Source: a virus (lineage: Duplodnaviria; Heunggongvirae; Uroviricota; Caudoviricetes). Taken from it: a stretch of DNA of 13,080 nucleotides. Of this stretch, positions 8,358 through 8,634 are shown piece by piece (position 1 is the stretch's first letter; the number at the start of each line of letters is the position of its first letter). The notes under the pieces are model-generated. The model worked only from the letters and a program-made list of their open reading frames with translations. It ran no database searches and was not told the origin of the DNA. A program made the position numbers and the translations under genes. The DNA is taken from IMG/VR virus record IMGVR_UViG_2563366976_000005. One strand, written 5' to 3'.

Positions 8358-8634
8358 AAAAACTCCTGCCCGTAAGCTGGGCTGCTGAACATATAGAGAC
8401 TTCTGCGCGTATTCAGGCGGTGGATGGCCGCCGGTTGTCATAACTAAGTCGCCTCGTTGAAGCGACTGAGGTATGAAGTGTTGAGTTGATTTCAGCTGGT
8501 CACACCGACGTTCACGCGTCCGCTTCACCCCTCGCACTCCCCGAAGCCTGCTGAAATTCAAACTGCGGATCTAAGCGGTCATCGCAACGGTGAAACAGGT
8601 GGTTACCGTATCGTTGTGTCGTTGCGATGAATTT

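Follow-up and report, generated by a model that had tools for sequence, protein, structure and literature searches.

A conserved 94-nt RNA element in the leader of an N-less lambdoid left operon, a positional equivalent of put and nutL-N and candidate antiterminator

Processive antitermination by RNA alone is known in lambdoid phages, to our knowledge, from a single family, put. The put RNA of phages HK022 and HK639 acts in cis and modifies RNA polymerase by docking on its β′ zinc-binding domain (PMC9378689). The DNA analyzed here, a stretch of 13,080 nucleotides (nt) from a virus of the Caudoviricetes (IMG/VR record IMGVR_UViG_2563366976_000005) referred to in its full length as the window, covers the early region of a lambdoid prophage. 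Over the tested stretch it shares 99% identity with Escherichia phage PhiR26_1, and its identity to the Bievrevirus phages 4A7, 4C10 and Perceval is ~91%. As the initial annotation of this DNA had claimed, there is no recognizable N gene: none is annotated in the complete, 99% identical genome of PhiR26_1, and tblastn with the N proteins of lambda and phi80 gave no credible match in the window, in complete PhiR26_1 or in the loci bearing the element described below. The region between the predicted start of the leftward promoter PL and the kil gene (8628-8358, minus strand) is very probably a non-coding structured RNA. Here it is tentatively proposed, with slightly less than even confidence in the reading as a whole, that this region is an untranslated leader whose 94-nt conserved cassette, element X, is a cis-acting RNA analogous to put, a role suggested by its position. 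No description of this leader was found in the literature.

Element X is known from two lineages. A hidden Markov model of the first half of the leader gave a partial match in the viral contig L142, from position 46 onward and starting at GAUGACCGC, and a pattern search then gave 15 viral contigs with a diverged X. Both lineages are exactly 94 nt long, from GA(U/G)GACCGC to CCAGCUGAAA, and are 82% identical. The hairpins P0/P1 and P2 (Table 1) are joined by invariant single-stranded segments, and in the alignment of the two lineages (A7) 99.7% of cells pair, with a covariation score of 0.195 vs 0.091 in shuffles and at most 0.061 in slid registers. Compensatory pairs are found at 20-39 (AU/CG) and 21-38 (GC/AU) in P1 and at 65-76 (AU/GC) in P2; the remaining differences between lineages are one U.G to C-G change and substitutions in loops, bulges and unpaired segments, and none of them disrupts a helix. 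Both lineages also keep a G.G mismatch at the same place in P2. P1 and P2, as well as the downstream hairpin HP3, are supported by covariation. X may have two conformations, because an alternative long-range helix, HP2, is invariant and compatible with three single changes, one of which breaks P1. Neither X nor the leader has a match in Rfam (whole window at gathering thresholds; 8300-8850 at E <= 5), and the search of viral contigs for a third lineage with the pattern TTGAATTTCAGCAGGR gave chance matches only.

The predicted transcript start, A8628, was placed from the PL hexamers and their alignment with the annotated pL -35 and -10 of phi80. The conserved leader begins, and the immunity-specific sequence stops, exactly at this predicted +1 in two immunity types with different operators, and the assignment is supported because conservation starts at the same point in the second type. 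Over the first ~20 transcribed nt, the window is similar to the corresponding sequence of phi80 and HK639 (ATCGCAACGACACAACGATA vs ATCGAAACGAAACATCGA), which suggests a promoter-proximal ancestry common to the three. In each of the three contexts seen, the distance of X from the predicted +1 is 45-70 nt. When L142 is compared with HK639, the flanks are identical and X (105 nt with linkers) occupies the exact place of putL (85 nt). Furthermore, the diverged X occurs behind at least eight PL/operator types, including the exact PL of phi80 (L157, L158) and of HK639 (L155, L164), always after the shared +1 leader AUCGAAACGAAAC...GCCAGCGGCGAAGUGGAG; at the same point phi80 diverges into a boxA-like nutL region and gene N. 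In L043 and L046, PL-putL adjoins the HP3 module ~150 nt from +1, and the 5′ hairpin HP1 and X of the window likewise adjoin HP3. A put covariance model (R1), built from HK022 putL and putR and HK639 putL, detects put in 21 of 100 HP3-bearing loci and never in an X-bearing one. Judged from sequence, these comparisons show X as the positional equivalent of put and nutL-N, exchanging as a cassette with both.

Intrinsic terminators lie downstream of X. In the diverged lineage, nine of the nine loci with enough sequence have a canonical one before the kil region, at a distance of 0.66-1.9 kb from X, and put, phi80 N and lambda N were not found in those nine loci. In the window, terminator-like hairpins with T-runs are placed further along the left operon (Table 1), and the one at 6250-6228 is at the place of tL3 in lambda. 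Terminators on the sense strand of an N-less leftward operon imply antitermination or internal promoters. According to the mechanism proposed here, the PL (kil-gam-bet-exo...) operon of this N-less prophage would begin with an untranslated, modular RNA leader, in which HP1 probably just caps or stabilizes the 5′ end of the transcript. X would be the functional core, acting in cis on the very RNA polymerase that had just made it, as HK022/HK639 put does, and the modified polymerase would read through the intrinsic terminators of the left operon with no N protein. HP3-HP4 would be a separate, widely shared RNA element ahead of the first gene after the tL1 position. A function of X in antitermination, whether self-acting or factor-assisted, has about an even chance of being correct, while the narrower proposal, in which X represents another class of self-acting antiterminator RNA, unrelated in structure to put and interchangeable with put and nutL-N at one recombination slot, is possible but doubtful.

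Several observations weigh against this proposal. The comparison with HK022 put suggested in the initial annotation places X outside the put family, as model R1 has no match in the window, in PhiR26_1 or in any X locus; similarly, no second copy of X, as an analogue of putR, was found in the complete genome by blastn/blastn-short, nhmmer or a covariance model (R2). The terminators downstream of X are pattern matches only, and the window itself has none between X and kil. The thermodynamic z-scores of X are unremarkable, as are those of genuine put. Independent covariation events are few because only two lineages are available, and the variant L115 breaks P1 while repairing HP2. The diverged lineage has 0.6-1.8 kb of coding DNA between X and the terminator, where an unrecognized protein partner is possible, with X as a nut-type site. 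Finally, the tblastn search, in which the lambda N query was a sequence entered by hand, is a weak test of the absence of N, since N proteins are very diverse.

The strongest alternative is an ordinary structured 5′ untranslated region, which would control how stable the PL mRNA is and how well it is translated, above all for the toxic kil, and would not affect termination; the distal genes would then rely on promoters of their own or on leaky read-through. Such a role would suit HP1, which at the predicted +1 has the position of a classic 5′-stabilizer hairpin, and HP3, in which GAGG and an AUG are buried; other N-less enterobacterial prophages also have kil directly behind PL, with different structured leaders. 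The full-length fold predicts a pairing of the kil Shine-Dalgarno sequence with 8487-8483, but this pairing is no better than in shuffles (p = 0.24). The alternative is nevertheless unlikely: in the diverged lineage X adjoins PL but is 0.7-1.9 kb and several genes upstream of kil, and X is not a kil-specific regulator because it stays by PL, far from kil. The exact exchange of X with put and nutL-N would also be left unexplained. A related candidate given by RNAalifold, the pairing of 8504-8481 with the kil ribosome-binding site, was set aside as a weak possibility only, with a duplex energy at shuffle level (p = 0.24).

As a second alternative, X would not be self-sufficient as an RNA and would, like nut, recruit a protein: host factors (Nus or others) or an unrecognized phage protein. 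The diverged order X - genes - intrinsic terminator - HP3 mirrors the phi80 order nutL - N - tL1A - HP3, the invariant single-stranded segments of X are of the kind recognized by proteins, and a canonical boxA at the nutR position of the rightward operon suggests the use of Nus factors. However, in the window type no open reading frame (ORF) separates kil from PL, no shared protein was identified for the two X lineages, there is no boxA/boxB in or near X, and tblastn with the two N queries gave no homologue, which together make this alternative improbable. The initial annotation had also reported that no convincing boxA/boxB pair could be found. This holds for the PL leader, which has no boxA within one mismatch; it had missed the strong, near-consensus boxA just after cro (CGCTCTTTAACAA), which is conserved in all relatives with the same cro gene, though no boxB hairpin follows it in the window. 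The rightward boxA may be left over from an ancestor that depended on N, or it may function as a site of boxA alone. In other phages among the fetched loci, the same boxA is followed by GGCUGA-NNNN-UCAGCC hairpins, and the close relative L081 (~3307) has 12 extra nt that form GACUG-AUUAA-CAGUC. A resemblance of the hairpin containing the Arg codons (below) to the annotated "nutL core" of phi80, seen with MAFFT, was dropped, as Smith-Waterman scores were at shuffle level.

The initial annotation had considered a non-canonical N-like protein, encoded by an arginine-rich stretch (GVKRTRERR) without an ATG. The stretch is present in the kil frame, with GTG 8528 and TTG 8561 as the only possible starts, yet as a protein it is very improbable, be it a 20-amino-acid (aa) peptide or a 125-aa Kil fusion from GTG 8528 (ATG in some relatives) that would bind a leader hairpin. 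All four Arg codons are inside P2, CGGACG-CGUGAA-CGUCGG (8522-8505), where a compensatory change explains the sequence as a hairpin, and TTG 8561, the other possible "start", belongs to the 5′ strand of P1. In its favor, a GGGGAG precedes GTG 8528 by 8 nt, in several relatives the GTG is an ATG and a TAG closes a 20-codon ORF, and the long ORF has been called by some GenBank annotators. Against this, in a comparison of nine related phages and 35 distinct leader variants, the variable sites at the three codon positions number 4/3/4 in the frame from GTG 8528 to 8358, vs 0/2/9 in kil, 3/4/12 in gam and 4/1/42 in bet. The change C8468 to T (CAG to TAG) stops the frame in about a third of relatives, three of the nine phages and many viral contigs among them, and the frame is further broken by a +1 T between the kil Shine-Dalgarno and ATG in PhiR30_1, a +1 G in the leader of L050 and a +5 nt duplication in L095 and L135. 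In the diverged lineage the GTG is followed directly by TAA (GGGGUG UAA). The N-terminal 68 aa of the 136-aa long ORF match no family in Pfam or PHROGs, and the put RNA of L043, when read in frame, gives a similar Arg-rich pseudo-ORF that enters the same MTTGGHPPP. The N-like protein was rejected on these grounds, and the Arg-rich "protein" is the result of translating the CG-rich P2 hairpin.

The same annotation had named the kil-position ORF as the first ATG-initiated gene after PL, which is confirmed: the ATG at 8357 is preceded by a good Shine-Dalgarno sequence (AGGAG, 8367-8363), and the match of PHROG 294 (Kil) to the 136-aa long ORF is confined to residues 60-135 (E = 1.8e-38). Additionally, RefSeq annotates the 207-nt kil, the kil homologues of other genera begin at the same ATG, and in phage D2 a lambda-type kil is joined in directly after the kil ATG. 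The lengths annotated for this gene in GenBank (68, 77, 96, 125 and 139 aa) disagree because the kil frame, by chance, extends open through the leader, and many "Kil" entries of 96-139 aa are over-extended into non-coding RNA. In several diverged-X phages a tiny ORF, MPVKQRERQKRTGYKRR, with the Shine-Dalgarno-like GAGGAAAAGGG, is found ~150 nt after X (L154, ~6380-6433 minus; also L153, L157, L159, L160, L162 and L163); it may be an artefact of GC-rich RNA or a mini Arg-rich peptide.

At the 5′ end of the leader, the perfect 11-bp inverted repeat reported earlier (TCATCGCAACG at 8579-8589 and CGTTGCGATGA at 8620-8630, with a 30-nt spacer) is present at those coordinates, and it is the sole perfect repeat of at least 11 bp with a loop of 3-60 nt in the window. 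The repeat alone is only mildly unusual because 18% of dinucleotide shuffles of the window have at least one of that class, and it does not bracket the leader, as had been stated, covering only its first ~50 nt. With a start at A8628 the RNA includes just 9 of the 11 repeat pairs, which form the stem of HP1; the folding of the transcript 5′ end that had been suggested gave a structured RNA over the first 93 nt (z = -3.5). The perfect 11-bp form is particular to the window variant, because most relatives have A at 8620, where the window has G. The HP1 stem has 7-10 bp within the immunity type of the window and a second one, while in a third (L018, L083; E. coli 319) conservation starts at ~8594, the left arm is replaced, and CAUCG/CGAUG alone can pair. 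No compensatory changes in HP1 were seen among relatives, and PhiR26_1 carries a pair-breaking change. HP1 is a 5′-terminal hairpin specific to certain promoter/immunity types and not the conserved core of the leader, and it plausibly stabilizes or caps the 5′ end of the transcript. The put-like cis-acting RNA once suspected in the repeat is not supported for the repeat itself, whose left arm is replaced in other immunity types, and carries over as a hypothesis to the adjacent X, in the putL/nutL-N slot. A DNA-level protein-binding site at the PL start (e.g., an operator), also raised before, or a chance feature of a recombination joint is highly improbable: the repeat straddles the predicted +1 and the junction of immunity-specific and shared sequence, and its size is matched in the share of shuffled windows given above, but its arms are unlike the AACAAC-type operators of this immunity type, have centers 41 bp apart and, on the left, are not conserved across immunity types.

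The palindrome ATCGCATAGCGAT that had been related to the repeat exists, at 8737-8749 and not at 8736-8748, and has only ATCGC in common with the repeat arms. With its surroundings (8725-8790), upstream of the operators and outside the PL transcript, it is kept in two immunity types and absent in the third (L018). A promoter-like TTGCGA-16-TATAGT (8622-8649, plus strand) overlaps the repeat and PL; such sites are no commoner than in shuffles.

Downstream of X, a G-less linker leads into the HP3-HP4 module. The 5-nt duplication of L095 and L135 is located in this linker, and a role of the linker as a Rho-loading (rut) site is speculation. HP3-HP4 was found in at least 101 distinct viral-contig contexts. 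The T-run of an intrinsic terminator comes immediately before it in 71 of these, X in 23 and put, again immediately, in 2; in phi80 the module comes after tL1A, and terminators also precede it in HK225, in HK639 and in phages of Klebsiella, Enterobacter and Salmonella. HP3 has at least 12 different stem sequences that are 99.3% paired, with compensatory changes at seven pairs and a covariation score of 0.355 vs 0.126 in shuffles (0/500), and the module is not in Rfam. The 3′ arm of HP3 carries a conserved GAG(G/U), GAGG in the window, and the invariant basal stem CAUA/UAUG holds the AUG at 8441-8439. The frame of this AUG usually begins MTTGGHPPP, as found with a search pattern that fixed the nucleotides, and its ORFs range from 9 to >130 aa. 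A conserved leader peptide MTTGGHPPP is doubtful, as the spacing between AUG and hairpin varies (2, 3, 4 or 5 nt) and the frame is not always kept. HP3-HP4 may serve as a translational operator or a leader ORF, or belong to a Rho-dependent device; in the annotation of phi80, the Rho-dependent tL1B lies ~120 nt further on from HP3-HP4. Nucleotide diversity (pi) is 0.015 across 8476-8358, vs 0.04-0.055 at third positions of kil, gam and bet.

The minus strand of the window has the order cI, lipoprotein moron with its terminator, operators and PL, ~270-nt leader, kil, gam, bet and exo, and the plus strand has cro (10242-10472), a YdaT/cII-like gene, O and P. The "cII" (10542-11081) is a 179-aa YdaT-domain protein according to RefSeq. 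In PhiR26_1 (L013, 9690-11192), the PD-lambda-1 defence gene is in convergent orientation between ren and Q, and transcription to Q must therefore cross a converging unit. HP1 with X is present, never annotated, in 2210 of 5426 complete E. coli genomes (~40%), and also in 16 GenBank phages; X has a single copy per genome. Neither the GenBank phage set nor the complete E. coli genomes contain the diverged X, of which only the flanks match there. The N-less Citrobacter, Silvania, Enterobacter and Kluyvera prophages L021-L027 also have kil directly behind PL; their leaders all start with CAUCG at the predicted start and show other structures, namely a 5′ hairpin GACAAC...GUUGUC, the hairpin CGCCAGCCUGGCG and a long helix GCUUCGCGGUGGUG...CACCACCAGCGAAG.

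Table 1. Coordinates of the features discussed (window numbering)
Feature	Coordinates	Strand	Description
Predicted PL	8635..8663	-	-35 TTGACG 8663-8658, 17-nt spacer, -10 TTAAAT 8640-8635; read from sequence
HP1	8579..8630	-	RNA: 9-bp 5′-terminal stem, 8628-8620 with 8589-8581, 30-nt top
Element X	8490..8583	-	94-nt conserved RNA cassette
X helix P0	8577-8575 with 8535-8533	-
X helix P1	8568-8559 with 8550-8541	-
X helix P2	8522-8518 with 8509-8505	-
Alternative helix HP2 of X	8557-8547 with 8499-8489	-
GVKRTRERR codons	8505..8531	-	GGG GTG AAG CGG ACG CGT GAA CGT CGG; P2 hairpin of X and its 5′ flank
Linker between X and HP3	8467..8492	-	G-less, C/A-rich, 26 nt, AAAUCAACUCAACACUUCAUACCUCA; read from sequence
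HP3-HP4 module	8408..8489	-	HP3 8476-8438; HP4 GGCGG-CCAUCCA-CCGCC 8432-8416
Distal leader	8358..8407	-	GCGCAGAAGUCU motif; hairpin GCCC-AGCUUAC-GGGC 8382-8368; kil AGGAG 8367-8363
kil	8151..8357	-	68 aa, FtsZ-inhibitor family; first real gene of the PL operon
Intrinsic terminator of the diverged-X lineage			CCCGCTCCGGCGGGTTTTTT
Terminator-like hairpin and T-run	6250-6228	-	inside orf60a homologue
Terminator-like hairpin and T-run	5655-5637	-	between orf61-like and TraR-like genes
Three terminator-like hairpins and T-runs	2715-2734, 2911-2930, 2941-2961	-	upstream of xis
Lipoprotein moron	9218-8838	-	own terminator 8830-8811
cI	10137-9448	-
boxA-like CGCTCTTTAACAA	10485..10497	+	cro-cII spacer, nutR position; near-consensus

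If the proposed role of X is correct, in ~40% of sequenced E. coli a prophage relies on a 94-nt nascent RNA, and not on N, for transcription of its left operon past the terminators. This would explain the expression of recombination and excision genes in common N-less E. coli prophages, such as the Bievrevirus phages and the Perceval prophage of LF82, and an unrelated RNA in the slot of put would be a second natural solution to compare with it. The analysis also defines a conserved RNA motif, HP3-HP4, with strong covariation and absent from Rfam.

Among known systems, 5′-terminal stabilizer stem-loops of bacterial mRNAs are of the ompA type. HP1 would be similar to these, which start within 0-2 nt of the transcript 5′ end, if transcription begins at A8628 as predicted, and differs in its lack of conservation in the third immunity type. 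The N/nut system of lambda and the nutL-N-tL1 region of phi80 have the same slot after PL as X; the first ~20 transcribed nt and the HP3-HP4 found after tL1A are common to phi80 and the window, and the window phage has a boxA at the nutR position, as in lambda-type nut. Unlike lambda, the window has no N ORF, its PL leader lacks boxA and boxB, its rightward boxA is not followed by a boxB, and its Arg-rich frame is not conserved as coding sequence. With respect to put, X has no detectable similarity in sequence or to the covariance model, and put-like activity and dependence on the β′ zinc-binding domain would be extended to it by analogy. The helices of X are of other lengths and ~10 nt apart vs 1 nt in put, and HK022 has both putL and putR, whereas X is single-copy without a putR-like partner; HK639 is annotated with putL only. 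Like put, X is located just downstream of PL in an N-less lambdoid phage with intrinsic terminators later in the operon, both are RNAs of ~80-100 nt with two stem-loops and conserved unpaired segments, putL and X swap between identical flanks, and both can adjoin HP3.

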